Of a stretch of 32,826 nt of DNA, positions 1 to 32,826 are shown in pieces. The position numbers and the translations under genes are program-made. Under the pieces are notes generated by a model. The model did no database searches and was not told the DNA's origin. It saw only the letters and a list, made by a program, of their open reading frames with translations. This DNA is from Clostridiales bacterium. GTDB lineage: Bacteria; Bacillota; Clostridia; Acetivibrionales; JBDMZA01. The DNA lies in NCBI GenBank assembly GCA_039770155.1, contig JBDMZA010000014.1:1-32826 (forward strand). The letters run 5' to 3'. Within the stretch, counting starts at the first letter, position 1. Each line of letters opens with the position of its first letter.

Positions 1-98
1 AATCAAAAAATAAACTAGTCAACTTTTTTTGAAAATTCGTTAAAGCATCGATATTTTCAGAAAAAAATTGTCTTATGAAATTTTTGATTATGCCTTAA
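1..98 (-). repeat. Family A element, full length, truncated by the window edge
   Basis: The reverse complement aligns along its whole length with 5211-5316, with only a few substitutions. Confidence 0.9.
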
Positions 99-119
99 TC
101 AAACTCCAAATGTAAAGAT

Positions 120-359
120 TTATTTATTTTTTTCCAATAATTTTATAATTTCTTTTGGTTTTAATACCTTCCCATAAGAAAGTACTTTTTCGTCTACTAC
201 CAAAGCTGGTGTAGACATAACACCATAGGCCATAATATCTTTAAAATCAGTTACTTTTACAATCTCAGCCTCCATATTTGCTTCCTCTAAAGCCCTCTTT
301 GTACTTTCACCTAAAGTAATACAATTTTTACAACCTGAACCCAATATCTTTATTACCAT
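120..359 (-). CDS. Small thioredoxin-fold redox-active disulfide protein (TM0996/MTH895-like)
   Basis: 79-aa ORF with a CxxC motif (GSGCKNC) near the N-terminus and a thioredoxin-like length. AAGGAG lies 8 nt upstream of the ATG at 359, so the track start at 368 (GTG) was rejected. It is the last gene of the ArsR-permease operon. Confidence 0.8.
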   Translation of the reverse strand: MVIKILGSGCKNCITLGESTKRALEEANMEAEIVKVTDFKDIMAYGVMSTPALVVDEKVLSYGKVLKPKEIIKLLEKNK

Positions 360-379
360 TTCCAACACTCCTTTTTATT

Positions 380-1420
380 TTAAATTAAAATGCTACCAAA
401 AAGATTAAAGATAGTACCTGTTATAATAATTCCTATAATCACTATAACTGCAAAAATAATTAATAATTTTGTTTTAACAACTTTTTTTAACATTACCATA
501 GAAGGCAAGGATAAAGCTGTAACACTCATCATAAAAGCTAATGCTGTTCCTATTCCAACATTCTTTGCTACAAGAGCCTCTGCAATGGGAAGTGTTCCAA
601 AAATATCTGCATACATAGGAACACCTACTAAAGTTGCAATAAATACTGAATACCATTTATCTTGTCCAAGTACAATTGATATAATTTCTTCTGGAACCCA
701 ATTATGTATTAATGCTCCAATTCCAACTCCTATAAGTATATATATCCAAACCTTTTTTATAATACTTAAAACCTGATCTTTAGAGAAAACTATTCTATCT
801 TTTACAGATTGTTTTTGTATACCTGTTTCATTCATTTTGTTTTCAAACACGAACTTTTCAACATAATTTTCCAGCTTCATTTTACTTATAATAGTTCCAC
901 CGATAACTGCTAGTACAATACCCAATAAGACATAAGAAAAAGCAATTTTCCAATTAAAAATACTTGCAAGAAGCAATACTGACGCTAAATCAACAAGAGG
1001 TGATGATATTAAAAAGGAAAATGTAACGCCTATTGGAAGACCTGCGCTTGTAAATCCAATAAATAAAGGTATAGACGAACATGAACAAAAAGGTGTAACA
1101 GTCCCCAAAAGAGCTCCTATCAAATTTGCATTGAATCCGTTATATTTACCCAGTATTTTTCTTGTTCTTTCAGGAGGAAAAAAACTTTGTACATATGAAA
1201 TAGAAAAAATAAGTACAATAAGTAATATAAAAATTTTTATTACATCATAAATAAAAAAATGTATACTACCTCCTAATTTATTATTCATATCAAGTTTTAA
1301 TATATCTTCTACAAAATTTTTTATTATATTACTTAACCATTCCATTTTAAGTATTTGATCATTTATAATTCTAAATATATTCAAAAAAAATCCCTCCCAT
1401 CTATTATTAGTTACTACCAT
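380..1420 (-). CDS. Multi-pass membrane permease of the ArsP/DUF318 (PF03773-like) type
   Basis: 346-aa highly hydrophobic ORF with the TPFCSCSSIPLF cysteine motif typical of this permease family. It sits between an ArsR regulator and a thioredoxin-like gene. The start is uncertain: a TTG at 1384 preceded by GGGAGGG is an alternative. Confidence 0.75.
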   Translation of the reverse strand: MVVTNNRWEGFFLNIFRIINDQILKMEWLSNIIKNFVEDILKLDMNNKLGGSIHFFIYDVIKIFILLIVLIFSISYVQSFFPPERTRKILGKYNGFNANLIGALLGTVTPFCSCSSIPLFIGFTSAGLPIGVTFSFLISSPLVDLASVLLLASIFNWKIAFSYVLLGIVLAVIGGTIISKMKLENYVEKFVFENKMNETGIQKQSVKDRIVFSKDQVLSIIKKVWIYILIGVGIGALIHNWVPEEIISIVLGQDKWYSVFIATLVGVPMYADIFGTLPIAEALVAKNVGIGTALAFMMSVTALSLPSMVMLKKVVKTKLLIIFAVIVIIGIIITGTIFNLFGSILI

Positions 1421-1431
1421 TACTTTAAATT

Positions 1432-1740
1432 CTATAAAGAATTCTTTATTTCTTCTATTTTTATCAGTACAATTTTTTCAGCCAATTCAATCATCTCATA
1501 AACTTCTTTGTTTATAATCGAATAAATTACCTTAGAACCTTCCTTTTTACTTTCTACAATACCTTGGTTCTTTAAAACTGATAAATGTTGTGAAGTATTA
1601 GATTGTTCAGAATCTAATTGAGGTAAAATATCACAAACACATATAGGTCCATTCTTTAAAAGGTTAATAATTTTTATTCTTGTAGGGTGTGCTAAAGCTT
1701 TAAATACATATGCTATCAACTGATTTTTTTTATAAGACAT
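1432..1740 (-). CDS. ArsR/SmtB-family metalloregulatory transcriptional repressor
   Basis: 102 aa with a winged-HTH signature (ALAHPTRIKIINLL ... CVCDI ... SQHLSVLKNQGIV). AGGTGA RBS lies 4 nt before the ATG. Confidence 0.85.
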   Translation of the reverse strand: MSYKKNQLIAYVFKALAHPTRIKIINLLKNGPICVCDILPQLDSEQSNTSQHLSVLKNQGIVESKKEGSKVIYSIINKEVYEMIELAEKIVLIKIEEIKNSL

Positions 1741-1754
1741 AATATCACCTCGTA

Positions 1755-1788
1755 TTTTAGCATATTATAATTTTCTAATATGCTAAAA
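1755..1788. promoter_or_regulatory. Perfect 13-bp inverted repeat, candidate ArsR operator
   Basis: TTTTAGCATATTA (1755-1767), an 8-nt spacer, then TAATATGCTAAAA (1776-1788). It lies directly downstream of the -10 box and upstream of the arsR RBS. Confidence 0.6.
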
Positions 1789-1790
1789 TA

Positions 1791-1819
1791 ATTATAGTCC
1801 TAAGATCAATATTTGTCAA
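1791..1819 (-). promoter_or_regulatory. Consensus sigma-70 type promoter of the arsR operon
   Basis: On the minus strand: TTGACA (1819-1814), a 17-nt spacer, then TATAAT (1796-1791). Confidence 0.7.
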
Positions 1820-1991
1820 CTACATAATCATTCTTTAGATCTCCTAATTGAGAATAAAACTAATTATTTAATAGATTCTTTCAATTTCGAATAAATATGT
1901 GTAATTACTTTTTCAAATATGAAAATTTAAAACAAACACAAATCAAAGTATTATTGATTTTTAGATATTCCAATTATAGTTTGCATAACTT

Positions 1992-2020
1992 TTGCCATAT
2001 AATTAAACATAGTATATAAT
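1992..2020 (+). promoter_or_regulatory. Candidate promoter upstream of the ATP-grasp leader
   Basis: TTGCCA (1992-1997), a 17-nt spacer, then TATAAT (2015-2020). Confidence 0.5.
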
Positions 2021-2047
2021 ATAAGTAGATAAATTTTTTATTAGGCG

Positions 2048-2109: not shown

Positions 2110-2174
2110 TTTGATTATTCCTTCCACAAAATAGTATTTACCTCTAATAATTCTAAGAAAGAAGGATAATAACA

Positions 2175-3614: not shown

Positions 3615-3685
3615 GATATCAAAAAAACATACAACTATTTCCAGGTTTCCTAAAATATTTTTAGGTTAAGGAGAGCCTAAATAAT
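3615..3685. repeat. Cluster of degenerate family-B-like termini
   Basis: GATATCAAAAAAAC, GGTTTCCTAAAATA, TATTTTTAGGTTAAGG and GGAGAGCCTAAATAATAAAAA resemble the B termini GGATATCCAAAAAATAA and GGAGAACCTAAAAAATAA. Confidence 0.3.
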
Positions 3686-3720
3686 AAAAACTCTTATATC
3701 AAAATATTATAAGAGTTTTT
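3686..3720. terminator. Bidirectional intrinsic-terminator-like hairpin
   Basis: AAAAACTCTTATA (3686-3698), a 9-nt loop, then TATAAGAGTTTTT (3708-3720). It is flanked by an A-run and a T-run. Confidence 0.55.
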
Positions 3721-3783
3721 ATTATTTTATTTTATTCAAATTAAATTTATTTATCATTTTTAATTAAACCTTTGTAAGATACA

Positions 3784-3833: not shown

Positions 3834-3889
3834 TACAAAATAAAAATTATGAGAAATTTAAATGCAATAACGAATAGGGGTTGAAAAAA

Positions 3890-5152
3890 ATGAATTATTC
3901 TCCAGTGAGAGGAATGAGGGATTTTTATCCTGATGATTATGAAAAACTAAATTATATATTTGAAACATGGAAGAGTGTGTCTCATGAATTTGGATTCAGG
4001 CAATATGATACACCAATTGTTGAATCATTAGAACTCTTAGAAAGAAAATCTGGTGAAGAAGTGTCAGATCAAATTTATAATTTTCAAGATAAATCAGGGA
4101 GAAATTTAGCATTAAGAGCCGAAATGACACCATCGCTAGCTAGATTAGTTATTACAAATAAACAATTAAAAATGCCATTGAAGTGGTTCTCTATTCCACA
4201 ATGTTTTAGGTATGAAAGAATGAGTAAAGGAAGAAAAAGAGAACATTATCAATGGAATTCAGATATAATTGGAGTTGAAAGTTCTATAGCTGAAGCTGAA
4301 CTTATAGCTGTTTCTATAAAGGCATTAAACAAATTTGGTCTGACAAAAAAAGACTTTATTATAAAATACAATAGCAGACAAATAATGCAAGAGCTTTTCT
4401 TAAATTTAGATTTAACAGAAAATGAAATGAAAACAGCTTTTTTAGTACTAGACAAAAAAGGTAAAGTATCAAATGATGTTTTAAAATCTATGTTAAAAGA
4501 GGACGGTTTAGATTCTCTAAAAATTGATAATATTATAAATCTACTAGAAATAAAAGATTTTAATGAAATTAAAAATATTTTGGGAGATTCAAAAGGTGTT
4601 TTAAATATTTTGGAGTTTAATGAATTTTTGAAATCTTTTGGTATAGAAGAAAATGTACATTATGATATTTCTATTGTTAGAGGTTTAAGTTATTATACTG
4701 GAATAGTTTTTGAAGGATTTGATATTGATCGAAATAGTAGAGCTTTACTAGGTGGTGGCAGATATGATACTTTATTTGATATTCTAGGAGAAAAAAGCAT
4801 TCCAGCTGTAGGATTTGGATTTGGAGATGTTGTTCTTGCTGATTTAATTGATGAGAAACAATTGTGGGGAAAAGAAAAATCACAAATCGATTATTATATA
4901 GGTTTTTCATCATCAGAATATGTAAATGAATCGCTTAAGATAGCAACTTCACTAAGAAATAAAGGTTTAACTGTTTATTCTGATACTTCAAAAAATAAAA
5001 TGAAAAAAATTCTTTCAAATTCAAATATGAAAAATTCAAAATTCACTATAATTCTTGATGAAAGAGAAATGGTAAATTCAGAAGTTTTGATAAAAGACAT
5101 GAATAATAAAATAAGTTCTATAAAAAAAATTAGTGATTTTTATCAATTATAA
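3890..5152 (+). CDS. hisS: Histidine--tRNA ligase
   Basis: Class II aaRS / HisRS motifs are present: RGMRDF, FRYERMSKGRKREHYQWNSDIIG, GGGRYD, and a C-terminal anticodon-binding domain. The ATG at 3890 with AGGGG upstream is preferred over the TTG at 3881. Confidence 0.93.
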   Translation: MNYSPVRGMRDFYPDDYEKLNYIFETWKSVSHEFGFRQYDTPIVESLELLERKSGEEVSDQIYNFQDKSGRNLALRAEMTPSLARLVITNKQLKMPLKWFSIPQCFRYERMSKGRKREHYQWNSDIIGVESSIAEAELIAVSIKALNKFGLTKKDFIIKYNSRQIMQELFLNLDLTENEMKTAFLVLDKKGKVSNDVLKSMLKEDGLDSLKIDNIINLLEIKDFNEIKNILGDSKGVLNILEFNEFLKSFGIEENVHYDISIVRGLSYYTGIVFEGFDIDRNSRALLGGGRYDTLFDILGEKSIPAVGFGFGDVVLADLIDEKQLWGKEKSQIDYYIGFSSSEYVNESLKIATSLRNKGLTVYSDTSKNKMKKILSNSNMKNSKFTIILDEREMVNSEVLIKDMNNKISSIKKISDFYQL

Positions 5153-5168: not shown

Positions 5169-5210
5169 TTTAGAACAACTTAAAAAATAAAATCACATTC
5201 TTTCTTTATC
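5169..5210. repeat. Family-B-type half element abutting family A
   Basis: TTAGAACAACTTAAAAAATAAAATCACATTCTTTC resembles B left arms at 17891 (AAAAAATAAATTGTCATTCTTT) and 25261 (GAGAACCTAAAAAATAATATCACATT). Confidence 0.5.
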
Positions 5211-5316
5211 TTAGGCATAATCAAAAATTTCATAAGACAATTTTTTTCTGAAAATACCGATGGTTTAACGAATTTTCAAAAAAAGTTGACCAGTTTATTT
5301 TTTGATTCTGGCTTAA
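5211..5316 (+). repeat. Family A palindromic element, full length (reference copy)
   Basis: TTAGGCATAATCAAAAATTTCATAAGACAATTTTTTTCTGAAAATACCGATGGTTTAACGAATTTTCAAAAAAAGTTGACCAGTTTATTTTTTGATTCTGGCTTAA. It is near-identical to 19429-19533 and to the reverse complement of 1-98. Confidence 0.92.
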
Positions 5317-5317
5317 T

Positions 5318-6787
5318 ATGGTAAGGAGTGATCAATCATTGATTTATGTTGCTGTTGACTTAGGTGCATCTAGTGGAAGAATACTAATAGGAAATAAGAC
5401 TGACAATACAATAACATTTCAAGAAGTCCATCGATTTTCAAACAACATTGAAGAAAAAAACAACAGATTTTATTGGAATATAGATTACCTATCAAATGAA
5501 CTGCTAATAGGTCTTCAAAAAGTTAAACAATCTGGTTATGAAAAATGTTATCTTGGTATAGATACATGGGGTGTTGACTACGTTCTTACAGATGATACTG
5601 GTAATAAACTAAGAGAAGTATTATCTTATAGAAATTTTTCATCAAATAAGTTAATTGATGAATTTTCAAACATGATTTCAAAAGAAAAAATATATGTTAA
5701 AACAGGAATTCAATTCATGCCTTTTAACACATTGTACCAATTATATAAAGATAATGCATATTTACTTGAAAATACAAATAATATTCTATTGATGCCTGAT
5801 TATTTAGCATACTATCTTACAGATATTGCGGTAACTGAATTAACTAATGCTTCCACAACTCAATTATTAAATATTGAAACTAAGAATTGGGATCCTGATT
5901 TACTAAAAATTTTATCCATTAAAAATTCTCAGTTTCCTAAACTTGTTGAACCCGGAACCAAATTAGGTAATTTAAAAAAAGAAAAATTTCCTAAATTTGA
6001 TCTTCCAGAATGTACTCTAATTTCAGTTGCTTCTCATGATACTGCTTCTGCCGTCGCTTCTACTCCCGGTTTTGGAGAAAACTGGGCATTTTTAAGTAGT
6101 GGAACTTGGTCACTTTTAGGAATGGAATTGAAACACTTTATAAATAATAATATTGCTCAAAAAAATAACTATACAAATGAATATGGTTATGCAAATACAA
6201 ATCGTTTTCTTAAAAATATTATGGGCTTATGGATTTTACAAGAAATTAGAAAAAACAACTTTTCAAATTATAGTTTTGACGAATTAGAAGAAGAAGCAAA
6301 AAAATCAAATAACTTTAGTCAATATATCAATTTAAATGATTCAAGATTTCTAAATCCTAAAAACATGTTAGAGGAAATTCAAAACTATTGCAGTGAAACA
6401 AATCAAAGTATTCCTAAATCTGTTGGTGAAATAATAAATGCTATCCTGTGTAATTTAGCAATTATATATTCAATTGCCCTAGATGAATTAGAAAAAATAA
6501 CAAGTAAATCTATAAATACACTTCATATTGTTGGTGGTGGAGCATACTATAATTTTTTAAATCAGATTACTGCCGATCTTAGTAATAAAAAAGTTTTAGC
6601 TGGTCCAACTGAAGCTTCTGCTCTTGGTAACTTTTTAGTTCAAATGATAACATCAGGCTGTATTAATGATATTAGCGAAGGTCGTAAAATAATAAAAAAT
6701 TCTTTTGAAATAAAAGAATACACTCCCAAAAATACTAATAGAGAGAATATTATTAATAAATTCATGGAGGTTACAAAATATGAGTAA
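5318..6787 (+). CDS. rhaB: Rhamnulokinase (FGGY family)
   Basis: It carries the N-terminal [11 protein letters not shown] motif characteristic of RhaB and an FGGY-kinase length. The real start may be the TTG at 5339, since AAGGAG at 5322-5327 lies inside the annotated 5' end. Confidence 0.85.
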
Positions 6788-8039
6788 AGAAATAGTAGAA
6801 AGTTATAAATTAGCAAAATTGGCCTATTCCAAATACAATATTGATGTTGATAAAATATTGGATGAATTAAAAAAAATAAAAATCTCAATTCATTGTTGGC
6901 AAGGTGATGATGTAAAAGGATTTATAAATAAAAATAAAGATTTAACAGGTGGAATATCAGTCACAGGAAATTATCCTGGTGCTGCAAGAAATCCTGGCGA
7001 ACTTCGAAGTGATTTAAAAAAAGCAATGTCACTAATCCCTGGAAAACACAAAGTAAATCTACATTCTATATATACTGATACTGATGAGAAAATTGACATT
7101 GATGAAATCAAACCAAAGCATTATGAAAACTGGGTAAAATGGGCTAATGAAAATGATTTGGGTCTTGATTTTAATCCTACATGTTTTTCTCACCCAAAAT
7201 CAGATGATGGTTTTACCCTAAGTCATCCTGATAAGTCAATTAGAGATTTTTGGATAAATCATTGTAAGAAAGTCAGAAAAATAGGTGAATACTTCGGTAA
7301 AGAAACTGGTAAAACTTGTATTACAAATATTTGGATACCAGATGGTTTTAAAGATAATCCAATAGACAGACTCTCTCCAAGAGTACGATTAAAAAATTCT
7401 TTAGATGAAATATTTAAAGAAAAATTAAATGAAAAATTTACATTAGATGCAGTAGAAAGCAAATTATTCGGAATAGGCTCTGAAAGTTATGTTGTGGGAT
7501 CTCATGAATTTTATATGGGATATGGATTATCAAGAAATAAGTTAATTTGTTTAGATGCTGGGCATTTTCATCCTACTGAGTCAATATCTAATAAAATATC
7601 CTCTCTTGCTCTTTTTTCAAAAGGTATATTTCTTCATGTCAGCAGACCTGTTAGATGGGATAGCGATCATGTAATCATATTAGATGATGAATTAAATGAA
7701 ATTGCAAGAGAAATAATTGTAAACAACCTTGCAGATAAAACTTTTATAGGATTGGATTTTTTCGATGCAAGTATAAATAGAGTTGCAGCATGGGTAATAG
7801 GTACTAGAAATATGTTAAAAGCATTATTAAAAACAATGTTAGAGCCTAATGAATATTTAAAAGAAATTGAATTGAATAAAGATTATACAACAAGACTTGC
7901 CCTTAGAGAAGAATTCAAATCTTATCCTTTTGGTGCTATTTGGGATTATTATTGTTTAAGTCAAAATGTACCTATAAAAGAAACTTGGCTTTCTGATATT
8001 AAGGATTATGAAAAAAATATTTTATTGAAAAGAAATTAA
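6780..8039 (+). CDS. rhaA: L-rhamnose isomerase
   Basis: 419 aa with the [11 protein letters not shown] motif. GGAGG RBS. There is an 8-nt overlap with the rhaB stop (ATGAGTAA). Confidence 0.9.
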
Positions 8040-8083
8040 GCAGAATCAAAAAATTGTCTTATGAAATTTTTGATTCTGCCTTA
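8037..8083 (-). repeat. Family A element, 47-bp internally deleted form (type i)
   Basis: TAAGCAGAATCAAAAAATTGTCTTATGAAATTTTTGATTCTGCCTTA. Both A termini and the ATTGTCTTATGAAAT arm segment are retained. Its first three bases are the rhaA stop codon. Confidence 0.85.
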
Positions 8084-9233: not shown

Positions 9234-9305
9234 AGCATAATAAAAAACAACTTTTATATAAAATAAAATCAAAAACTATCAATTAAAATAAATTGATAGT
9301 TTTTT
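9231..9305. repeat. Degenerate family-A-like segment ending in a terminator hairpin
   Basis: TAAAGCATAATAAAAAA matches the A terminus TAAGGCATAATCAAAAA at 15 of 17 positions. CAAAAACTATCAATT matches the interior of the degenerate A copy at 32682-32696 at 14 of 15 positions. Confidence 0.35.
9271..9305 (+). terminator. Intrinsic terminator after the rhamnose block
   Basis: AAAAACTATCAATT (9271-9284), a 6-nt loop, then AATTGATAGTTTTT (9291-9305). Confidence 0.6.
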
Positions 9306-9327
9306 CAATATTTTATTTTAAATATTC

Positions 9328-9356
9328 TTGAAAATAATAAATTTTTATGATAGCAT
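9328..9356 (+). promoter_or_regulatory. Candidate promoter of the GrpE-like gene
   Basis: TTGAAA (9328-9333), a 17-nt spacer and an extended -10 TGATAGCAT (TAGCAT at 9351-9356). Confidence 0.45.
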
Positions 9357-9393
9357 TTTTTACCAAGATAACATTGTATGAGGAGATAAGTTA

Positions 9394-9993
9394 ATGATAG
9401 ATTTTAGTAAAGAATTTGCAAAATATGATTTTTTTCATATTTCAGAAAATATTGAACTTGATATTAATATTGATTCATTATCAAATATAAAGAAAAATAT
9501 TAAAAGAATTGGAAGAGAACAAAATAATGTTGTTATCCAAATAGATGATATACATGAGATATTAGATAAATTAAATGAATCAATTTTTAATCTAAATGAA
9601 ATAAATAAATTAAAAAAAGAATTTACAATAAAAGAAGCTTGTTTTTTTAATGAAAAAGAAGAAGTAATTAATAATCTTATAGAAGTTTTAGATGAAGTGG
9701 AAAATATAATACATTTTTCCAAATTACATTTAAATAATAGCTATAGTGAGCAATTAAATATTACATGGTCTCAAATAGGTAATATAATAAAAAAAATTGG
9801 TTTAACAAGACTAGATGATATAGATAATAAATTTAATGCTGAATTAAATGTTGCAACAAAAGTTTTAGTTATTGACAACAAAGATGATAATACAATTATT
9901 GAAACATTAAATTCAGGATATATATATGAAAAGAAAATCATAAGAAAATCTAAAGTCGTTGTTAATAAAACAAGGAGTGAAATAATTGAGTAA
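9394..9993 (+). CDS. GrpE-like nucleotide exchange factor (divergent paralogue)
   Basis: 199 aa with a coiled-coil N-half, VINNLIEVLDEVENII (compare the GrpE LLPVLDNLERAL motif) and a C-terminal beta-domain pattern (FNAELNVA ... ETLNSGYIYEKKIIRKSKVVVNK). GAGGAG RBS. It is translationally coupled to an Hsp70-type ORF. Confidence 0.5.
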   Translation: MIDFSKEFAKYDFFHISENIELDINIDSLSNIKKNIKRIGREQNNVVIQIDDIHEILDKLNESIFNLNEINKLKKEFTIKEACFFNEKEEVINNLIEVLDEVENIIHFSKLHLNNSYSEQLNITWSQIGNIIKKIGLTRLDDIDNKFNAELNVATKVLVIDNKDDNTIIETLNSGYIYEKKIIRKSKVVVNKTRSEIIE

Positions 9994-10087
9994 AGTAATT
10001 GGAATAGACTTAGGTACTTCGACATCAGAAGTCTCAGTATTAGAAAATGGTAAGCCTCGCTTAATTGAAAATAATTTAGGCAGTTAA
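9986..10087 (+). pseudogene. Hsp70/DnaK-family gene remnant (first 33 codons only)
   Basis: A TTG start lies 7 nt after AAGGAG. The translation is MSKVIGIDLGTSTSEVSVLENGKPRLIENNLGS followed by a stop. This is the phosphate-1 motif of Hsp70 ATPases, and the remaining ~550 codons are absent. Confidence 0.7.
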
Positions 10088-11161
10088 AGAATATGAAACT
10101 TTATGCAATAAGAATCCCCATAATTATAAATATTTATGTAAATTGGGATCAGCTTATTGTAAAAGAGGCTTTAGTATCAAATCAGAAAAGATACTTCTTG
10201 AATGTATAAAAATAGATAAATTAAATCCACAAGCATGGGATGAACTGGTTTTACTATACATTAAAACAAAAAAAAACAAAAAAAAGTTATACCTACTTTA
10301 GATAAATGCGTTGATATGTGTAATAAAAATCACTCTAGCTATAGTCAATTAATTACTAAATATTTAACATATGATTTTGAATCTAAAGATTATAAAAACA
10401 TATTAAAATCTCTTCAAAAAATCAAAAACTATTGTATTGATAATAATGAATGTAAAGTAACTGTATCACATATGCTTTTAGATTTCGCACTAGATTCATT
10501 ACTTCCTGAAATACATATTTATTCAAAGAAAATAATAGATCTTTCATTAGAATTAAATCCTAATGATGAATTAATAAAAGAATTTCACATTAAAATCACC
10601 GAAAAAATAAAACTCCTACCTCATTTAGAAAAAGCAAAATATGACCCAAATATGTCTCAAGATATATACGAATATATATTTCATAGTATATTTTCGGATA
10701 TTAATAGTCTAACTGATTATTTTAATACTATCAATATGATGCTCAAATATAAAATGCTTTTACATAAAATATATAATAACCTAAATAAATACAAAAAACA
10801 TGTAAAATACTTAAAAAGTCATTATTATATTTTGTATGAAGAATTTAAAGATTTTTTTGATTCAATCTTATCTAATAAATTTAAACTTAACAAAAAAGAT
10901 TTATTCTTTAATAGCTTAATGAATCTAGATTCTATTTTACATGAGGAAGATATTTACTCTGAAGATGATGATTATATAGAAGAAGATGTCTATGTAGAAG
11001 AAGATGTTTATGTAGAAGATAATCCTTTTTATGATTTTGATAGTTCATATGAAGAAACACATACATCTCAACCTATAACTGTTGAAAAAATAGGTAGAAA
11101 TGATGATTGTCCCTGTGGAAGTGGTAAAAAATACAAAAAATGTTGTTTAGGAAAAGATTAA
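10080..11161 (+). pseudogene. TPR / SEC-C-motif protein gene, 5'-truncated and frameshifted in an A9-C-A8 tract
   Basis: Frame 0 (10080-10298) encodes a TPR-like segment (YETLCNKNPHNYKYLCKLGSAYCKRGFSIKSEKILLECIKIDKLNPQAWDELVLLY) with no start codon. The reading continues in another frame from 10265 to 11161 and ends in the SEC-C motif [13 protein letters not shown]. The track ORF 10316-11161 is the distal part. Confidence 0.55.
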
Positions 11162-11170: not shown

Positions 11171-11319
11171 TAAGGCAGAATCAAAAATTGTCTAACTTAG
11201 GGATATCCAAAAAATAAACTCTAATTCTCGAGTATGAATTCGCGCGATTTAAGCGAACTTCAGACGAAAAGAATTCGGTATTATTTTTTAGGTTCTCCTT
11301 ATTTTTTTATTCTGCCTTA
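11171..11319 (-). repeat. Family A short (type i) element interrupted by a complete family B element
   Basis: The outer sequence TAAGGCAGAATCAAAAATTGTCTAACT ... ATTTTTTTATTCTGCCTTA matches the 47-bp form at 8037 and 23822. Confidence 0.85.
11199..11299 (+). repeat. Family B (B1) palindromic element, full length (reference copy), nested in family A
   Basis: AGGGATATCCAAAAAATAAACTCTAATTCTCGAGTATGAATTCGCGCGATTTAAGCGAACTTCAGACGAAAAGAATTCGGTATTATTTTTTAGGTTCTCCT. It is near-identical to 23719-23822 and 32728-32826 and is flanked by TTA on both sides. Confidence 0.92.
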
Positions 11320-11396: not shown

Positions 11397-11444
11397 TAAG
11401 GCATAATCAAAAAGTTGACTAGTTTATTTTTTGATTATGCCTAA
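11397..11444 (+). repeat. Family A element, 48-bp internally deleted form (type ii)
   Basis: TAAGGCATAATCAAAAAGTTGACTAGTTTATTTTTTGATTATGCCTAA. It has both A termini plus the right-arm segment GTTGACTAGTTTATT. Confidence 0.85.
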
Positions 11445-13078: not shown

Positions 13079-13178
13079 ATACCATAAAAAATAAACTCTA
13101 ATTCTTTTCATATGAACTTCGCTTAAATCATGCGAATTCATACTCGAAAATTAGAGTTTATTTTTTGGCTATCCCTTA
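13079..13178 (-). repeat. Family B (B1) element, full length, arms symmetrised
   Basis: ACCATAAAAAATAAACTCTAATTCTTTTCATATGAACTTCGCTTAAATCATGCGAATTCATACTCGAAAATTAGAGTTTATTTTTTGGCTATCCCTTA. It overlaps the last codons and the stop of the DeoR gene. Confidence 0.9.
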
Positions 13179-13936
13179 GTAATTAAAATTTCTAAATCCC
13201 ATTCACTTACATCATCATTCCATGCTTTTGGTATATCAGTATCACTTATAATTTTATTAATTTTTGAAATATCTGTTGTATTAACATAACCCATTTTATC
13301 AAATTTAGTATGATCACATAAAAATATAACTTTTTCAGATCGTTCAATCATAAGTTTCCTTATTCCTGCTTCTTCTTCACTAGAATCTGTAAGACCTTTT
13401 TTTGGTGAAAATCCTTTGCATGAAAAAAACATTTTATTTGCATAGTAGCCTTTTAATGCATTTTCAGCCACTCGCCCCACAAAAGACAAACTTTTCGCTC
13501 TTAAAATTCCACCTGTTGATATAACTTTAATATTATTACAATCTGCAAGTTCAATTGCAATTCTTGCTGCATTTGTTATAACTGTCAGTCCTGTTTTATC
13601 TTTTAAATACTTTGTCATATATAGAGCTGATGTACTTGCATCTAAAATTATGATATCACCATCATTAACTAATTTAGCTGCATTTTTTGCTATTAAATTT
13701 TTACCATCAGAATTAATTCCTTCTCTTATTTTAATTGATATTTCTTCTTTTATATCGTCAGGAAGTACAGCTCCACCATGAGTTCTAATAAGATCACCTT
13801 GTTTTTCAAGAAATTTCAAGTCTCTTCTTATAGTCTCCTCTGTTACTTCAAACATTGTAGCTACTTCATTTACCAAAATACTTTTATTTTTATTTAATAT
13901 TGATAATATTTTAGTTCTTCTCTGTACTCCAAACAC
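13169..13936 (-). CDS. DeoR/GlpR-family transcriptional regulator
   Basis: 255 aa with an N-terminal HTH (VATMFEVTEETIRRDL) and a C-terminal DeoR sugar-phosphate sensor domain. GTG start. Confidence 0.85.
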   Translation of the reverse strand: MFGVQRRTKILSILNKNKSILVNEVATMFEVTEETIRRDLKFLEKQGDLIRTHGGAVLPDDIKEEISIKIREGINSDGKNLIAKNAAKLVNDGDIIILDASTSALYMTKYLKDKTGLTVITNAARIAIELADCNNIKVISTGGILRAKSLSFVGRVAENALKGYYANKMFFSCKGFSPKKGLTDSSEEEAGIRKLMIERSEKVIFLCDHTKFDKMGYVNTTDISKINKIISDTDIPKAWNDDVSEWDLEILITKG

Positions 13937-13975
13937 ATTAGTAACCGGGTTAAATTAACCTTATCCTTTCTAAAT

Positions 13976-16447: not shown

Positions 16448-16476
16448 AATTACAACTCCTTATTAATTATAAAAAT

Positions 16477-16503
16477 TCGATATTATTTTTTATGTTTTCC
16501 TTA
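16477..16503 (+). repeat. Family B right-terminus remnant
   Basis: TCGATATTATTTTTTATGTTTTCCTTA resembles GGTATTATTTTTTAGGTTCTCCTTA. Its terminal TTA is the E3 stop codon. Confidence 0.5.
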
Positions 16504-17886: not shown

Positions 17887-17890
17887 CTCC

Positions 17891-18010
17891 TAAAGGATAT
17901 CCAAAAAATAAATTGTCATTCTTTAGTAATAAATCACATAACTAATCAATACACATAAGTTTTAATAATTCTGCAATAAAAAGAATGCTCTATTATTTTT
18001 TAGTTTCTCC
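17891..18010 (+). repeat. Family B variant filling the E2-E3 intercistronic spacer
   Basis: TAAAGGATATCCAAAAAATAAATTGTCATTCTTT ... AAAGAATGCTCTATTATTTTTTAGTTTCTCC. It has canonical B termini and complementary arms but a different ~50-nt interior. Confidence 0.75.
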
Positions 18011-18015
18011 AAATT

Positions 18016-19389
18016 TTAGTTTTTTAATAATAAAAGTTGAAAATTTTCTAAATTTGTTTTAAGATCATTTAAAAATCTTGCAGCAGGTGCCCCATCTATA
18101 GCTTGATGATCAAATGTTAAAGATAATCCTATTGAAGAATATAATACTAATTTATTGTTTTCCTCTTTTGGTTTCTTGACTATACTACCAACTCCTAAAA
18201 TAGCAACCTGTGGTGGATTTATTACAGGTGTAAAGTTTTCTATATTATAAATACCAAGGTTTGTAATAGTAAATGTACCACCTTTTAAAACATCTGGATT
18301 TATTGTCCCCTCTTTACACTTCAAAGCTAATTCTTTTATTTCTTTTGAAATTTGATTTAATGATTTTTTATTTGAATTAACTATTGTAGGTACCATAAGT
18401 CCCCTTTCAGTATCAATTGCAACTCCCATATTAACACTGTTGTATAAATGTAATTCATCACCTTTTAAATGAGCATTTAATCTTTTATGTTTTGTTAATG
18501 TTTTAATTAAAGCAAATATAATCATATCATTTAATGTTATATTCTCAATCCCCAACCCACTATCCTTAGTATTTTCTAAATCACCTTTTACTTTATTTCT
18601 TAAATTCATTATTTCTGTAGCATCAAAGGAAGTATTTAATGTTAGTTGAGCCATATTTGATAATGAGTTTGACATAGTTTTTGCAATTACTTTTCTTATG
18701 TTTGAAAACTTTTCAATCTCATAATCATTATTACTTTCAATATTTACACTAGACTTTTCTTCTTTTGCATTTTCAATGTCATAGGTAGCTATTCTTCCAC
18801 CTATAGCTGTACCTTCACTATCAGTATAGCTTTTATGTGAATCTATTAAATCTCTTGATGTTTTTGTATATAATCTTCCACTTTCAATACTTTTTATTAT
18901 ATCATTTTCTATTATTCTTCCATTTGCACCTGTCCCAATTATATTGCTAAAATCAATATTTACTTTCCTTGAATATTTTTTTGCTCTCGGAGAAATAAAA
19001 ATCTTTCCAATATCTGTTTTACTAATTTCCACTTCTTTTTCTACTTCTACGATTTTATTATCATTCTCTTCTATTTTTTTATTAGCACTTTCTGTTAATA
19101 CTTCTTTTGAAACTTCATTTTTTCTCGGGTCAAATTCAGATGTACTTTCTCCTTCTTGTCCAATAACACAAACATTTATGAGGCAATCTACATCGTCACC
19201 TTCGTCAAAAAAGATATCCAATACTATACCATCTAATGTAGATTCTTCTTCAAAACCTGCTTTATCTGTTTCATAGGAAAAAATCACTTCTCCTTTTTTT
19301 ATTGTATCACCCTTTTTCTTATGCCACTTTGAAATAATACAACTTTCTACAGATTGTCCTTGTCTCGGCATTATAACTGGCACTGCCAT
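18016..19389 (-). CDS. Dihydrolipoamide acyltransferase (E2)
   Basis: It has one lipoyl domain (ETDKA), a peripheral subunit-binding domain (ISPRAKKYSRKVNIDFSNIIGTGANGRI) and a catalytic domain with DHQAIDG. Confidence 0.9.
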   Translation of the reverse strand: MAVPVIMPRQGQSVESCIISKWHKKKGDTIKKGEVIFSYETDKAGFEEESTLDGIVLDIFFDEGDDVDCLINVCVIGQEGESTSEFDPRKNEVSKEVLTESANKKIEENDNKIVEVEKEVEISKTDIGKIFISPRAKKYSRKVNIDFSNIIGTGANGRIIENDIIKSIESGRLYTKTSRDLIDSHKSYTDSEGTAIGGRIATYDIENAKEEKSSVNIESNNDYEIEKFSNIRKVIAKTMSNSLSNMAQLTLNTSFDATEIMNLRNKVKGDLENTKDSGLGIENITLNDMIIFALIKTLTKHKRLNAHLKGDELHLYNSVNMGVAIDTERGLMVPTIVNSNKKSLNQISKEIKELALKCKEGTINPDVLKGGTFTITNLGIYNIENFTPVINPPQVAILGVGSIVKKPKEENNKLVLYSSIGLSLTFDHQAIDGAPAARFLNDLKTNLENFQLLLLKN

Positions 19390-19428: not shown

Positions 19429-19533
19429 TTAGGTATAATCAAAAATTTTATAAGACAATTTTTTTCTGAAAATATCGATGGTTTAACAAATTTTCAAAAA
19501 AAGTTGACTAGTTTATTTTTTGATCCTGCCTTA
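19429..19533 (+). repeat. Family A element, full length, between lipA and E2
   Basis: It is near-identical to 5211-5316. Its terminal TTA (19531-19533) is the lipA stop codon. Confidence 0.92.
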
Positions 19534-21030: not shown

Positions 21031-21092
21031 TGGAAAGCCCAAAAAATAATATCACATTTTTAAAATGTAGATTTATTTTTTTGAATATCCCT
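21031..21092 (-). repeat. Family B short form (B2 subfamily)
   Basis: TGGAAAGCCCAAAAAATAATATCACATTTTTAAAATGTAGATTTATTTTTTTGAATATCCCT. It shares AAAAAATAATATCACATTTT with 25261 and with 29332 (reverse complement). Confidence 0.75.
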
Positions 21093-23718: not shown

Positions 23719-23822
23719 TTAAGTGATATCCAAAAAATAAACTCTAATTCTCGAGTATGAATTCACATGATTTAAGCGAACTTCAGACGAAAAGAATTTG
23801 GTATTATTTTTTAGGTTGTCCT
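23719..23822 (+). repeat. Family B (B1) element, full length
   Basis: It is near-identical to 11199-11299. Differences are concentrated in the apical loop (ACATGA versus GCGCGA). Confidence 0.92.
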
Positions 23823-23869
23823 AAGGCAGAATCAAAAAATTATCTTATGAAATTTTTGATTCTGACTAA
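23822..23869 (-). repeat. Family A short (type i) element abutting family B
   Basis: TAAGGCAGAATCAAAAAATTATCTTATGAAATTTTTGATTCTGACTAA. It shares its first bases with the end of the B copy. Its far terminus contains the SDR stop codon (CTA at 23866-23868). Confidence 0.85.
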
Positions 23870-24824: not shown

Positions 24825-24900
24825 TAAGACGGAATCAAAAAATAAACTAGTCAACACCTATTCATTTTCGAGAATGTGGATTTATTTTTTGGATATCCCA
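24825..24900 (-). repeat. Chimeric element: family A terminus and arm fused to a family B arm and terminus
   Basis: TAAGACGGAATCAAAAAATAAACTAGTCAAC is the A part. It is followed by ACCTATTCATTTTCGAGAATGTGGATTTATTTTTTGGATATCCC, which is a B1 arm and terminus. Confidence 0.8.
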
Positions 24901-24914
24901 TAGGAGGAATAGAG

Positions 24915-25229
24915 ATGTTTAGAATTGCCAGTATAATGTATGTTTATAAAGAGAAATATGTAGAATACAAAAAAAGACATGATAAATTATGGCCTGAAAT
25001 GGAAAAAACCCTAAAGGATCATGGTGCAAATAACTATTCAATCTTTTTAGAACCCAATTCAGGACAACTCTTTGCCTATCTTGAAGTAGAAAGCAAAGAA
25101 AAGTGGTCAAAAATTTCAAAAACAGACATATGTAAAAAATGGTGGGATTATATGGAACCTTTGATGGAAACTAATCCCGATAACAGCCCTAAATCAACAA
25201 ACTTAGAAGAAGTTTTTTATTTGAAATAA
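24915..25229 (+). CDS. rhaM: L-rhamnose mutarotase
   Basis: 104 aa, collinear with E. coli YiiL/RhaM as I recall it ([23 protein letters not shown] ... [17 protein letters not shown] ... EEVFYL). AGGAGG lies 7 nt upstream of the ATG at 24915. Confidence 0.85.
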
Positions 25230-25236
25230 ATTTATA

Positions 25237-25262
25237 TTAGGCATAATCAAAAATTCCATAAA
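25237..25262 (+). repeat. Family A left-end fragment truncated by a family B element
   Basis: TTAGGCATAATCAAAAATTCCATAAA matches the first 26 nt of family A. Confidence 0.7.
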
Positions 25263-25363
25263 GAGAACCTAAAAAATAATATCACATTTTTGAGAATAAA
25301 TTCCTATGTTTTAATCGAATTTCATACAGAGAGGATTTGATATTATTTTTCAGTTTCTTCTAA
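25261..25363. repeat. Family B variant (B2-type left arm) overlapping the 3' end of the OYE gene
   Basis: The left end is AAGAGAACCTAAAAAATAATATCACATTTTT. The right end GATATTATTTTTCAGTTTCTTCTAA matches GGTATTATTTTTTAGGTTCTCCTAA at 21 of 25 positions. Confidence 0.7.
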
Positions 25364-26584: not shown

Positions 26585-26655
26585 TTAGGATAGCCTAAAA
26601 AATAAACTCTAATTCTTGAGTATAAAATTCAGCAGCATTTTTTAGGTTCTCCTAA
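26585..26655 (+). repeat. Family B (B1) element with an internal deletion (71 bp)
   Basis: TTAGGATAGCCTAAAAAATAAACTCTAATTCTTGAGTATAAAATTCAGCAGCATTTTTTAGGTTCTCCTAA. Confidence 0.85.
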
Positions 26656-28193: not shown

Positions 28194-28266
28194 TAAGGAT
28201 AGGCTGAAAATTAAGTTTCACAAATTCACACTCGAAAATTAAGGTTTATTTCTTGATTATGCCTAA
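28194..28266. repeat. Chimeric element: degenerate B1 body ending in a family A terminus
   Basis: TAAGGATAGGCTGAAAATTAAG ... AAATTCACACTCGAAAATTAAGGTTTATTTCTTGATTATGCCTAA. The right arm is collinear with 13131-13168, but the last ~12 nt are the A terminus. Confidence 0.75.
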
Positions 28267-29331: not shown

Positions 29332-29378
29332 GTGATCCTAGGATTTTGAAAATGTGATATTATTTTTTGGCTTTTCTA
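29332..29378. repeat. Family B short form (B2 subfamily)
   Basis: The reverse complement GAAAAGCCAAAAAATAATATCACATTTTCAAAATCCTAGGATCAC parallels 21033-21070. Its end contains the GNAT stop codon (CTA at 29376-29378). Confidence 0.6.
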
Positions 29379-30267: not shown

Positions 30268-30314
30268 TTAGAACCTAATAAAAAATAATTAGAATTATTT
30301 TTTGATATCCATTA
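30268..30314 (-). repeat. Minimal family B element (termini only, 47 bp)
   Basis: TTAGAACCTAATAAAAAATAATTAGAATTATTTTTTGATATCCATTA. Confidence 0.7.
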
Positions 30315-30340
30315 TATATATATATCGGTTTTTAAAAAGA

Positions 30341-30979
30341 TTATTTTAAAAAATCTATTATATCTTTTAAATCATTTGTTGCTATATATTCATCTGATAT
30401 ATTTATTAATGCATTGGAAAAATTAATAGCAATTCTTTTTCCACAATTATCAAATATATTCATATCTGAAATGCTATCCCCCACAGCTATACAATCTTTC
30501 ATTTTAATTTTATTTTTTTTACAAAATTCTTTTAATCTCAATAATTTATTTTCACCATTTAAATGTACCTTCATATCACCTGTGAATTTTCCTTCTTTTA
30601 ATTCTAAATCACTTCCAATATATTCATCAAACTTATATTTATCTGAAATTATTTTAGCTATAACACTAGGACCAGTAGTTATAAGAAAGATTTTCATATT
30701 TTGTTCTTTTATTGATTCTACACATTCCTCTATACCTTCATTTAACTTCATTTCTGAATTGAAAAAATCTTTAATCTTTGATTCTAATAAACCTTCTAAA
30801 AGTTTTACTCTTAAATAATCAGATTTTATCCAGGTAATTTCATTCTCTCTTTCCTTTTGTTCTATATCTTTTAGTTCTTTTTCTTTTTTATTTAATATAC
30901 AAAGATAATCAATAGACTTTGTGTTTTGAAAAAATGAACCGTCCATATCAAAACAAACTGCTTTATACTTTTTTTTCAA
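30341..30979 (-). CDS. HAD-superfamily hydrolase (subfamily IB, phosphoserine-phosphatase-like)
   Basis: It has motif I (CFDMDGS) and motif IV (AVGDSISDMNIF). The TTG at 30979 lies 6 nt after GAGGTG and is preferred over the ATG at 31000, which has no RBS. Confidence 0.75.
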   Translation of the reverse strand: MKKKYKAVCFDMDGSFFQNTKSIDYLCILNKKEKELKDIEQKERENEITWIKSDYLRVKLLEGLLESKIKDFFNSEMKLNEGIEECVESIKEQNMKIFLITTGPSVIAKIISDKYKFDEYIGSDLELKEGKFTGDMKVHLNGENKLLRLKEFCKKNKIKMKDCIAVGDSISDMNIFDNCGKRIAINFSNALINISDEYIATNDLKDIIDFLK

Positions 30980-31025
30980 AACTAACACCTCATTCCACAT
31001 TTTTTTTATTTATATTTTAATTATA

Positions 31026-31115
31026 TTAGGAGAACCTAAAAAATAATACAGCATACTGACAAGTCCATATGATTCATTAATCGATTATGACAACTTGCTT
31101 TTACAATATCCCTAA
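31026..31115 (-). repeat. Family B variant with a divergent interior
   Basis: TTAGGAGAACCTAAAAAATAATACAGC ... ACAATATCCCTAA. Confidence 0.65.
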
Positions 31116-31281
31116 TCAGTAGAGTATAATTATTATCATCCCAATAACAATGAAATTATTAATTACAGTAAATTTTTTATAGTAATTTTTTATTAGAAAT
31201 ATATATTAAATTATCTTATGTAGGTTTGAATAGATTATTACATTACATATAATTAAAATAAACTAAATTTTTAACCCAATG

Positions 31282-31378
31282 TTAGAGATATCAAAAAATA
31301 AACCTTAATTCTTGAATATAAATTCATATGAATTAAGTAAACTTAAAACAAATAGTATTATTTTTCAGATTATCCTTA
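31282..31378 (+). repeat. Family B (B1) element, diverged full-length copy
   Basis: TTAGAGATATCAAAAAATAAACCTTAATTCTTGAATATAAATTCATATGAATTAAGTAAACTTAAAACAAATAGTATTATTTTTCAGATTATCCTTA is collinear with the reference copy. Confidence 0.8.
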
Positions 31379-31643
31379 TATTATAAAAACACTAAAATAA
31401 ATTCTCTCTATTTGTTTTGCATTAATTATAGCACATGAAAGCAAATAGCTACAATCTAAATTTTCATAAAATTCTTTTTATCTAAAATCACTTTGAAATG
31501 AAATATAGATTATTTTGTTGTATTTTGTCATTTTATTTGTTATAATATAAGAAATACACTTCAAATATATTTTTTCAGTCACTATAAGTTCATTAGTTTA
31601 CTCCTATAATTTTACGTTTATTATTTGAAAGTGAGGTACTTTT

Positions 31644-32603
31644 ATGAAGAAAAAAATATTTACAATTTATATTTTTTCCATAATCTTCTTAACTTCATCA
31701 TTATTTTCAAATGTTAAACCACAATACCATAAAATCAAGTCTACAAGCTTAAGTACAAAAAAAACATTTTCAAAAACTAATAATTCAAAACCAGTATTAT
31801 TTATAAATAACAATTTAATATTAAATAAAACTTCACTATATATAGATTATTATTTGTATATTTCTTTAGAACTAATTTGTAATAATTTAGGTATAAACTA
31901 TACTTATAATAAAAACATTGTTTCTTTTAGAAAAAACAATAAAAAACTCCACTTTAAAATTAATAAAATTAAAAACAATACAAAATATATTTCCTATAAC
32001 CAACTAGTTATTTTATTAAAAAAATATAATGCAGATTATTCATGGAATTTAAAGAGTAAAACATTAAAAATAAATCATGATATTTATGATAATAATTTTA
32101 CAAAAGAAGATGCAATAAATAATGTTTCAGTGATTTTTTCAAACAATGCACAAGGAAGTTCTGTTTTAATTGATAAATATACATTACTTACATGTTGGCA
32201 TGTTATTGAAGATTTTAATTATGATTTAAATAATATAGTAGTAGGAGATGCAAATATTGATGTGCTAGGATTAAGAAAAGTAGTAAATAATGATTTAGCA
32301 GTATTAGATGTTACAGTAAGAAATAAAAGGGATTATCCTAAATTAAATGTTGCTTATAAATGGAATAGAGTCACCTCAATAGGGTTTCCAAACACCTCTT
32401 TTTCAATAACAACTGGTCAAATAACAAATGTTAAACAGTTTTATAAATATCCTTCGGATACTAGTTACACAATTGAAAATCAATCTGATGTAAAAATAAA
32501 TCATGGAAGTTCAGGCGGTGCATTATACAATGCAAAATATGAATTAATAGGAATAACCAATGCCTTTGATAAAAAACATTCATATTCACTTCCAGTAAAA
32601 TAA
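31644..32603 (+). CDS. Secreted trypsin-like (S1) serine protease with an N-terminal copper-amine-oxidase-N-like/stalk domain
   Basis: It has a signal peptide and a catalytic triad context: TCWHVIE (His), NDLAVLDV (Asp) and NHGSSGGALY (Ser). GAGG RBS. Confidence 0.7.
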   Translation: MKKKIFTIYIFSIIFLTSSLFSNVKPQYHKIKSTSLSTKKTFSKTNNSKPVLFINNNLILNKTSLYIDYYLYISLELICNNLGINYTYNKNIVSFRKNNKKLHFKINKIKNNTKYISYNQLVILLKKYNADYSWNLKSKTLKINHDIYDNNFTKEDAINNVSVIFSNNAQGSSVLIDKYTLLTCWHVIEDFNYDLNNIVVGDANIDVLGLRKVVNNDLAVLDVTVRNKRDYPKLNVAYKWNRVTSIGFPNTSFSITTGQITNVKQFYKYPSDTSYTIENQSDVKINHGSSGGALYNAKYELIGITNAFDKKHSYSLPVK

Positions 32604-32606
32604 ACA

Positions 32607-32631
32607 AGAGAAATGTAAATACACTTCTCTT
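32607..32631 (+). terminator. Weak terminator-like hairpin after the protease gene
   Basis: AGAGAAATGT (32607-32616), loop AAAT, then ACACTTCTCT (32621-32630). That is 9 of 10 bp paired, with only a short T-rich tail. Confidence 0.4.
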
Positions 32632-32634
32632 ATA

Positions 32635-32709
32635 TCAGACATAATCAAAAATTTCACAAAATAGTTTTTTTCTAAAACTATCAATTCTTTACAGCAATTT
32701 GATCCTTTA
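32635..32709 (+). repeat. Family A element, degenerate copy
   Basis: TCAGACATAATCAAAAATTTCACAAAATAGTTTTTTTCT follows the A left arm. The right end AATTTGATCCTTTA resembles TTTTGATCCTGCCTTA. Confidence 0.65.
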
Positions 32710-32727
32710 TTTTTAATTATAACAAAC

Positions 32728-32826
32728 TAAGGGATATCCAAAAAATAAACTCTAATTCTCGAGTATGAATTCACATGGTTTAAGTGAACTTCAGACGAAA
32801 AGAATTCGGTATTATTTTTTAGGTTC
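32728..32826 (+). repeat. Family B (B1) element, full length, truncated by the window edge
   Basis: It is near-identical to 11199-11299 and 23719-23822. Confidence 0.92.

Follow-up and report, generated by a model that had tools for sequence, protein, structure and literature searches.

The 32,826-bp contig JBDMZA010000014.1, referred to here in its entirety as the window, carries between its genes two families of palindromic elements of about 100 bp, A and B, which are very probably two previously undescribed families of non-coding transposable elements of the miniature inverted-repeat type (MITEs). The full-length unit is 99 bp in each family, with boundaries fixed by aligning 23 A and 9 B full copies together with their flanks, taken from the window and from metagenome contigs. 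In this alignment, family A runs from GGCATAATCAAAAA to TTTTTTGATTATGCC, with terminal inverted repeats (TIRs) GGCATAATCAAAAA / TTTTTGATTATGCC, and family B runs from GGGATAKCCAAAAAATAA to TTATTTTTTAGGYTMTCC, with TIRs GGGATAKCCAAAAAATAA / TTATTTTTTAGGYTMTCC. Within the window, full copies are 93-97% identical to one another in family A and 90-96% in family B. The elements are AT-rich with GG(C/G)AT termini, range in size from 42 to 117 bp, and contain no open reading frame (ORF). A preliminary description of this DNA had presented A and B as two related families; both families are real, but their kinship is confined to the termini (about 10 of 14 bases) and to a common target duplication, and their interiors are unrelated.

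Target duplications, copies and gene ends

The elements are flanked by direct repeats of 3 bp. Among the 33 elements with both termini that made up the test set, perfect direct 3-bp flanks were present in 21 (12 TAA, 8 TTA and 1 TAT), whereas the inverted flanks that would be expected from an extension of the palindrome were present in 1 (p=1.1e-5, binomial test); 8 of the remaining 11 elements differ at one base. Because TTA and TAA flanks both occur among copies of the same element orientation, the flank is duplicated target DNA and not part of the element. The TIRs had earlier been described as embedded in TTA/TAA; the embedding is real, but the trinucleotide is a target-site duplication (TSD) that lies outside the inverted repeat.

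These flanks can also be read in terms of IS630/Tc1-mariner-type MITEs such as Correia or RUP, with a 2-bp TA duplication and a third base that belongs to the element. TA is present in all flanks, the size of about 100 bp and the AT-rich targets resemble those of RUP (107 bp), and a symmetric TA model accommodates the flanks TAA...TTA (11174/11316) and TTA...TAA (26588/26652). However, in 20 of the 21 TWA pairs the two ends co-vary in their middle base, the TA model would require the element to carry an extra base at exactly one of its two ends, and no sequence similarity to known repeats was found in Rfam or in a literature search with the termini. We regard this reading as improbable and describe A and B below as MITEs with a 3-bp TWA duplication.

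Repeated insertion is visible at individual sites. The nested site at 11197-11301 reads TAAGGCAGAATCAAAAATTGTCTAAC-TTA-B-TTA-TTTTTTTATTCTGCCTTA, in which a B with its own duplication lies inside a short A. The arrangement TWA-A-TWA-B-TWA at the stop codon of the SDR gene indicates two successive insertions into one target. Three 42-bp short A copies at separate sites have the terminus variant GGCAGAATC in common; two intact 42-bp copies have direct duplications, and a third, split by B, is flanked by TAA/TTA. The occurrence of 42-bp copies at separate sites suggests that the termini alone are sufficient for movement, and the 42-bp derivative itself appears to be mobile. With three copies at separate sites, this derivative illustrates how small an apparently mobile unit can be.

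The copies catalogued in the window are as follows.

1..94, minus strand: full A, truncated at the contig start; TTA at 95-97 as right flank; nhmmer 4e-25
~5170-5205: degenerate B-terminus stub beside the full A at 5214..5312
5214..5312, plus strand: full A, 99 bp; TSD TTA (5211-5213, 5313-5315); its end precedes the rhaB ATG by 5 nt
8039..8080, minus strand: 42-bp short A made of the two TIRs and the left-arm loop; TSD TTA/TTA; overlaps the rhaA stop at 8037-8039
11174..11316, unstranded: short A split by a nested B into 11174-11196 and 11302-11316
11200..11298, plus strand: full B nested within the short A; own TSD TTA at 11197-11199 and 11299-11301
11400..11441, plus strand: 42-bp short A keeping the right-arm loop; TSD TAA/TAA; dG -17.7, z -6.8
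13079..13175, minus strand: full B between the convergent 5'-nucleotidase and deoR genes
16470..16500, plus strand: 31-nt B-terminus stub; flanks TAA/TAA; exactly at the E3 stop, 16501-16503
17894..18010, plus strand: B variant, 117 bp, interior replaced; flanked by the E2 stop and the Shine-Dalgarno sequence of E3
19432..19530, plus strand: full A; TSD TTA/TTA on the plus strand, which is TAA on the gene strand
21032..21091, minus strand: short B of 60 bp in the gap from the ADH stop to the lipB start; TSD TAT/TAT
23723..23821, plus strand: full B; TSD TAA/TAA, the right TAA being common to the adjoining short A
23825..23866, minus strand: 42-bp short A; TSD TAA/TAA; last base plus TSD form the SDR stop codon
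24830..24899, minus strand: chimera, with an A right arm at 24830-24858 joined to a B left arm at 24860-24899
25240..25360, plus strand: A left-terminus stub (25240-25258) and adjoining full-length B variant (25262-25360; TSD TAA/TAA)
26588..26652, plus strand: 65-bp short B; flanks TTA/TAA
26835..26873, plus strand: A right arm, 39 bp; TSD TTA directly adjoins the stop of the DUF4474 gene
28212..28263, minus strand: chimera of a B interior and an A terminus
29344..29375, unstranded: weak B-arm stub at the stop of a GNAT gene; hand-curated
30268-30314: mini-B resembling the stub at 29344..29375
31029..31113, unstranded: B-like variant with a perfect B terminus, GGAGAACCTAAAAAATAA, and a divergent interior; hand-curated
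31285..31375, plus strand: divergent B; TTA/TTA flanks; profile E value 2.6e-11
32638..32694, plus strand: divergent left half of A
32731..32826, plus strand: full B, cut by the contig end

Searches against randomized sequence support the reality of these copies. A degenerate 28-nt arm pattern matched the window 10 times and 100 dinucleotide shuffles of it not once, and an A/B profile search with nhmmer gave 30 hits in the window and none in 5 shuffles. The nhmmer hits merge into 18 loci with approximately 21 elements, which occupy 1369 bp, equal to 4.2% of the window and 28% of its 4.8 kb of non-coding DNA. With hand-curated stubs added, the total rises to approximately 26 elements and 1.75 kb (5.3% of the window and about 36% of its non-coding DNA). 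The initial estimate of roughly 30 copies covering 2 kb, 6% of the window and nearly half of its non-coding DNA was therefore overstated, as our figures are about 21-26 elements and 1.37-1.75 kb. The seven full copies named in the preliminary description were all recovered in place by repeat finding, BLAST and profile searches, and its account of full, shortened, nested and chimeric copies in nearly every gap beyond 5.1 kb was borne out: among the 19 gaps of at least 40 bp downstream of this point, 17 hold elements or fragments, the two without an element being 9234-9393 and 9994-10315.

The local density in the window is about 640-800 elements for each Mb, with 4-5% of the DNA made up of elements. 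The MITE maxima reported by a census of 183,232 genomes were 123-146 per Mb and 1.23% (PMC11602168), a comparison in which one contig is not a genome and the detection used in the census was strict. As far as our searches show, no clear TWA-duplicating Tourist-like families at such a density have been described in Bacillota.

Many copies lie at the ends of genes. Approximately 10 elements in the window overlap a stop codon or sit within 3 nt of one. The stop codon of lipA (19531-19533) is the right TSD copy of the full A at 19432..19530. The last two codons and the stop of deoR (AAG GGA TAG, 13169-13177) come from the TSD and a B element, and the 3' end of the OYE reductase ORF (25343-25360) is supplied by the B variant at 25262-25360. 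TAA is the commonest stop codon in this genome of 26% GC, and duplication upon insertion would restore it. Insertion at or near a stop codon in a tight operon spacer would be nearly harmless because the duplication regenerates TAA, and this near-harmlessness would explain why many copies adjoin gene ends or supply the last codons. The locus shows in one place how a 3-bp TWA target allows harmless colonization of TAA stops and tight spacers. The repeats also distort gene calls, namely at the start of rhaM and where deoR and the OYE reductase gene end. In the region 24876-24917, the called start of rhaM (GTG at 24876) falls in a B fragment, and the ATG at 24915 is likely the true start; the chimera at 24830..24899 ends 3 nt ahead of the rhaM Shine-Dalgarno sequence (GGAGG, 24903-24907).

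Two further observations concern repeat-like sequences in the window. Upstream of hisS, within 3640-3735, a degenerate B-type terminus (TAAGGAGAGCCTAAATAATAA, 3667-3690) lies directly next to a clean hairpin of terminator-like form (AAAAACTCTTATA...TATAAGAGTTTTT). Repeats are otherwise sparse in the first 5 kb, and this terminus may be what is left of an old B. A third small palindrome family, unrelated to A and B (TTAAAATAAATTGATA...), is found at 2048-2100, with 26-nt arms that are 96% complementary, and at 9283-9321. Both of these palindromes are located in gaps without A or B and are terminator-like in appearance.

Related loci, host and assembly

Empty sites were found in a relative. A JGI contig of 26% GC (L110), whose E1 and E3 proteins are 81% and 67% identical in amino acid sequence to those of the window, has the same gene order as the window, rhaM-SDR-PHP-ADH-lipB-lipA-E2-E3-E1-deoR. 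No A or B is present in its 21 kb, and its spacers are 13-52 bp in length; a second 21-kb locus of the same organism also contains neither family, giving 42 kb in all. Where the window reads TTA-A-TTA-B-TTA at the SDR stop, TAA-A-TAA at lipA, and TAA-stub-TAA at E3, the matching sites of L110 consist of a bare stop codon followed by a Shine-Dalgarno sequence.

Recurrence outside the window, a check that the preliminary description had proposed, was observed in a second metagenome as well as in further contigs from the sample of the window. A metagenome scan with a 27-nt A-arm pattern matched 26 contigs, 20 of which carry a full A that is 82-95% identical to those of the window; 18 of these 20 are from metagenome Ga0224525. 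Five B copies, for which no selection had been applied, were found on the pattern-matched contigs and are 72-81% identical to B in the window. The elements are short and non-coding, have TIRs and a TSD, and are multicopy and dispersed with filled and empty sites, so that every generic feature of MITEs that could be examined is present.

Shared and differing sites were found in an orthologous piece of a Ga0224525-type relative (L103), whose E1 is 84% identical in amino acid sequence to that of the window. A B element is present at the deoR stop in both, in the same orientation, with the two copies 72% identical, and the duplication together with the element encodes the terminal KG* of both DeoR proteins. 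The rhaA stop is occupied by a 42-bp A in the window and by an oppositely oriented full A in L103, a difference that indicates recurrent insertion at the same target. The three lineages, represented by the window, Ga0224525 and the repeat-free organism, are approximately equidistant, with amino acid identities of 81-84% for E1 and 77-80% for RF2. Separately, the E1-deoR spacer is 242 bp in L103 versus 39 bp in the window, and positions 1600-1700 of L103, in this spacer, are strikingly GC-rich over about 100 nt (GGTGGCGGGTACCGATTCTGTTTGCAGGCGGCGAGC...), although the genome is AT-rich elsewhere.

These comparisons also bear on explanations that involve no mobility at all, namely, integron attC-like sites, operator or terminator palindromes duplicated along with genes, or an assembly artifact. 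The elements are indeed imperfect palindromes of attC-like length that lie between genes. However, the flanking genes form a conserved housekeeping operon, syntenic in L110, and are not cassettes; GTTRRRY / RYYYAAC cores are absent; and duplications and a nested copy are present. As for an artifact, the same copies are found both in a Logan assembly made independently and in a different metagenome. We give these explanations next to no credence, and the MITE interpretation is retained.

The window is an ordinary AT-rich bacterial chromosome segment of about 26% GC. Its genes include arsR, a permease gene, a Ddl-like ligase gene, hisS, rhaB-rhaA-rhaD, grpE, a 5'-nucleotidase gene, deoR, the E1-E3-E2 2-oxoacid dehydrogenase cluster, lipA, lipB, dehydrogenase genes and rhaM. 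It comprises an entire contig, both ends of which lie in repeat copies. Two Logan contigs from the same sample (SRR25010665) correspond to window positions 5281-8069 at 100% identity (L001) and 13154-19000 at 99.93% (L109), and L112, a separate and unselected contig of this species 2 kb in length, carries B-type pieces in its sole spacer and at either end. These three contigs, like the window, start or stop inside repeats. Because contigs begin and end in copies, the repeats are numerous enough to fragment assemblies of this genome and, in short-read data, of the lineage.

The RF2 proteins of the same species and its relatives are 70-74% identical to those of Acetivibrio and Pseudobacteroides, E3 is about 60% identical to proteins from Clostridia, and related contigs encode a spore-type YhbH and the clostridial maturase CcpM. 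On the basis of RF2, E3, YhbH and CcpM, the host would be placed in an uncultured low-GC Clostridia-like lineage. The hisS gene (3881-5152) departs from this pattern in that its nearest homolog among 5.8 billion proteins is only 55% identical; the next-best matches are from the PVC group (Lentisphaerota and Kiritimatiellia) at about 45%, and the genome collection gave only PVC-group metagenome-assembled genomes at about 45% identity. The contig that encodes the nearest homolog contains no A/B repeats. This raises the possibility that hisS may have been horizontally acquired or is evolving very rapidly. Downstream of grpE (9986-10087), only a 31-codon remnant of the dnaK N terminus (SKVIGIDLGTSTSEVSVLENGKPRLIENNLGS*) is found and the remainder of dnaK is missing; it is followed at 10097-10315 by about 230 bp without an open frame ahead of an ORF with a SEC-C motif. 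The site looks like a rearrangement breakpoint or a pseudogene.

Mechanism, hairpin structure and function

A and B would descend by deletion from a cut-and-paste DNA transposon; they are non-coding, and a DDE transposase from a gene elsewhere in the genome would move them in trans. This enzyme would recognize the termini of approximately 14-18 bp (A GGCATAATCAAAAA; B GGGATAKCCAAAAAATAA), in which about 10 of 14 bases are common, and a 3-bp staggered cut at TWA would leave the TTA...TTA or TAA...TAA flanks. The 42-bp form, now multicopy, would have arisen by microhomology deletions between A/T runs, the adjacent and nested copies by repeated insertion into the same TWA, and the chimeras by recombination between A and B. 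The common terminus core and the identity of the duplication point to one enzyme, or to sister enzymes, acting on A and B. In ISfinder, duplications of 3 bp are given for ISL2 and IS1031, two groups of the IS5 family. From the duplication alone we infer a transposase of the IS5/PIF-Harbinger type (Tourist-like) behind the inverted repeats, duplications, nesting, empty sites and spread to other contigs and lineages that we observe, and we also infer ongoing transposition. A 5'-TWA-3' TSD defines PIF/Harbinger (PMC4482050), which is related to bacterial IS5 (PMC2213677).

As the preliminary description had stated, the window encodes no transposase, RAYT or other recombinase; none was detected by Pfam in any ORF of at least 80 amino acids. 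Pairs of termini spaced 0.6-3 kb apart were likewise absent from the window and the related contigs.

Several observations weigh against this model of movement in trans. No autonomous element with A/B termini was found, and an exact 26-nt A-arm pattern gave 0 loci among the matches listed for the genome collection. No transposase was found in the related contigs among the 10 of 74 ORFs that were scanned for families, nor by inspection of the rest; the ten encode PrkA, YhbH, FlgG, RF2, a radical-SAM maturase and similar proteins, and the 74 look ordinary. No presence/absence polymorphism was seen within the species, the contigs L001 and L109 being 99.9-100% identical to the window but from the same sample. 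Four-fold degenerate sites of E1 are 49% identical between the window and L103 and are thus saturated, and the family consensus is much closer, with cross-lineage identities of 82-94% for A and 72-81% for B. Such conservation is not an obvious outcome for a purely selfish element dependent on its termini only, and it suggests constraint on the whole hairpin, gene conversion or homogenization among copies, or horizontal transfer. In addition, one compensatory pair per family hints at maintenance of the hairpin.

Computed folds agree with the earlier statement that the elements are hairpins, which holds for all forms. On the two strands, full A has a free energy (dG) of -18.6 / -20.2 kcal/mol (z -2.0 / -3.1) and full B one of -24.1 / -25.1 kcal/mol (z -2.4 / -3.2). 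The 42-bp forms fold at -16 to -18 kcal/mol (z -6.4 to -6.8), including -16.2 (z -6.4) for the short A at 8039..8080. The compensatory pairs are AU<->GC in A (5 sequences) and UA<->AU in B (5 versus 5). Nearly all stem pairs are invariant, with covariation terms of -0.14 and -0.31 kcal/mol that are close to zero, and the covariation is too slight to claim a selected structure. In the A' subfamily, the stem is weakened without compensation. Promoter-like and terminator-like patterns were not enriched, and none was placed on the elements.

The hairpins raise two further explanations. The first is that A and B are REP/BIME-like palindromes spread by a RAYT (an IS200/IS605-type Y1 HUH enzyme) via single-stranded hairpin intermediates. 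In its favor, the palindrome spans the whole element, the 42-bp forms match REPs in size, and copies are often paired or adjacent. However, A and B have direct, co-varying duplications of 3 bp, which HUH elements do not generate, the GTAG/CGTC tag is missing, the elements are AT-rich and not GC-rich (compare PMC3733652), and no RAYT gene was found in the window or in the related contigs examined. This explanation is very improbable. The preliminary description had left the class open as MITE-, REP- or Correia-like and non-autonomous; the TIRs, TSD, nesting, filled and empty sites and recurrence agree with a MITE, and the REP/RAYT type and the Correia/RUP target do not hold.

The second explanation adds to a MITE origin and does not replace it: the host would have co-opted the hairpins as intercistronic RNA stabilizers, processing sites, attenuators or DNA-level structural sites. 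Co-option would explain both the density and the cross-lineage conservation. It is consistent with the hairpin fold in all forms, with a whole-element consensus far more conserved between lineages than four-fold sites, with one full compensatory pair each in A and B, and with the position of copies between the cistrons of the acetoin/pyruvate dehydrogenase-lipoate operon, beside Shine-Dalgarno sequences. On the other hand, full-length folds are only modestly better than those of shuffled sequences (z -2 to -3), covariation is near zero and the weaker stem of A' is uncompensated, an equidistant relative has the same operon without the elements, no T-tract follows the stem and no terminator or promoter pattern is enriched, and the truncation and chimerism of copies are haphazard. 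We consider co-option unlikely.

A host-maintained hairpin layer would be suggested by a full-length sequence that is nearly constant while neutral sites are saturated, together with a compensatory stem change in each family. In its furthest form, which we hold to be doubtful, this lineage would carry possibly the heaviest MITE load yet in a prokaryote, its hairpins now being host-maintained intercistronic RNA/DNA structure in operons, derived from stop-codon-homing bacterial Tourist-like elements. If the conservation across lineages does reflect function, the locus would be a test case for the domestication of MITE hairpins in operon regulation. Apart from this question, REP/RAYT palindromes, integron attC sites, a TA-type MITE and an assembly artifact were rejected as candidates, each failing on features that were tested.

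Comparison with known systems

In agreement with the preliminary description, which had recognized no named family, A and B had no counterpart in the collections searched. Rfam gave no hits at the gathering threshold, and its E-value mode returned only sub-threshold matches to miRNA hairpins. A full-text search of the literature for the terminus sequences gave no match, nor did one for the sample accessions or searches covering the full elements in plasmid, phage and viral-contig collections. To our knowledge, MITEs are the least studied of the bacterial mobile elements.

The closest parallels are the Tourist MITEs of plants, which belong to PIF-Harbinger, relatives of the IS5 superfamily (PMC4482050, PMC2213677). 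Tourist/PIF-Harbinger/IS5 elements have in common with A and B the 3-bp TWA duplication, termini that start with GG, an AT-rich target, a non-coding body of about 100 bp, a high copy number, gene-adjacent positions and nesting (PMC4482050, PMC2213677). In contrast, the host is bacterial here, A and B are palindromic over their whole length and not just at their termini, and a 42-bp derivative is present in multiple copies.

RUP (107 bp) of Streptococcus pneumoniae and Correia/CREE of Neisseria are, like A and B, intergenic bacterial MITEs of about 100-150 bp that are often located between cotranscribed genes, may overlap gene ends, and exist in full and internally deleted forms. Their duplication is TA, with IS630-like or unknown transposases, whereas that of A and B is the 3-bp TWA; in the Rfam and terminus searches, no sequence similarity was seen. 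ERIC/IRU, RU-1 and YPAL are also imperfect palindromes of about 100-130 bp in transcribed intergenic regions, with size variants generated by internal deletion or insertion, but they are found in enterobacteria and vibrios and are unrelated in sequence, and the evidence for A and B rests mainly on the co-varying TSD. REP/BIME-RAYT systems resemble A and B in their very high copy number, palindromic structure and location at the 3' ends of genes, and the 42-bp A forms are of REP size. REPs, however, have no duplication, are GTAG/CGTC tagged, GC-rich and RAYT associated, and A and B show none of these properties, with no RAYT gene among the ORFs of the window. A and B are new families of a well-known kind, and they stand out by their density, their homing to stop codons, and a mobile-looking derivative of 42 bp.

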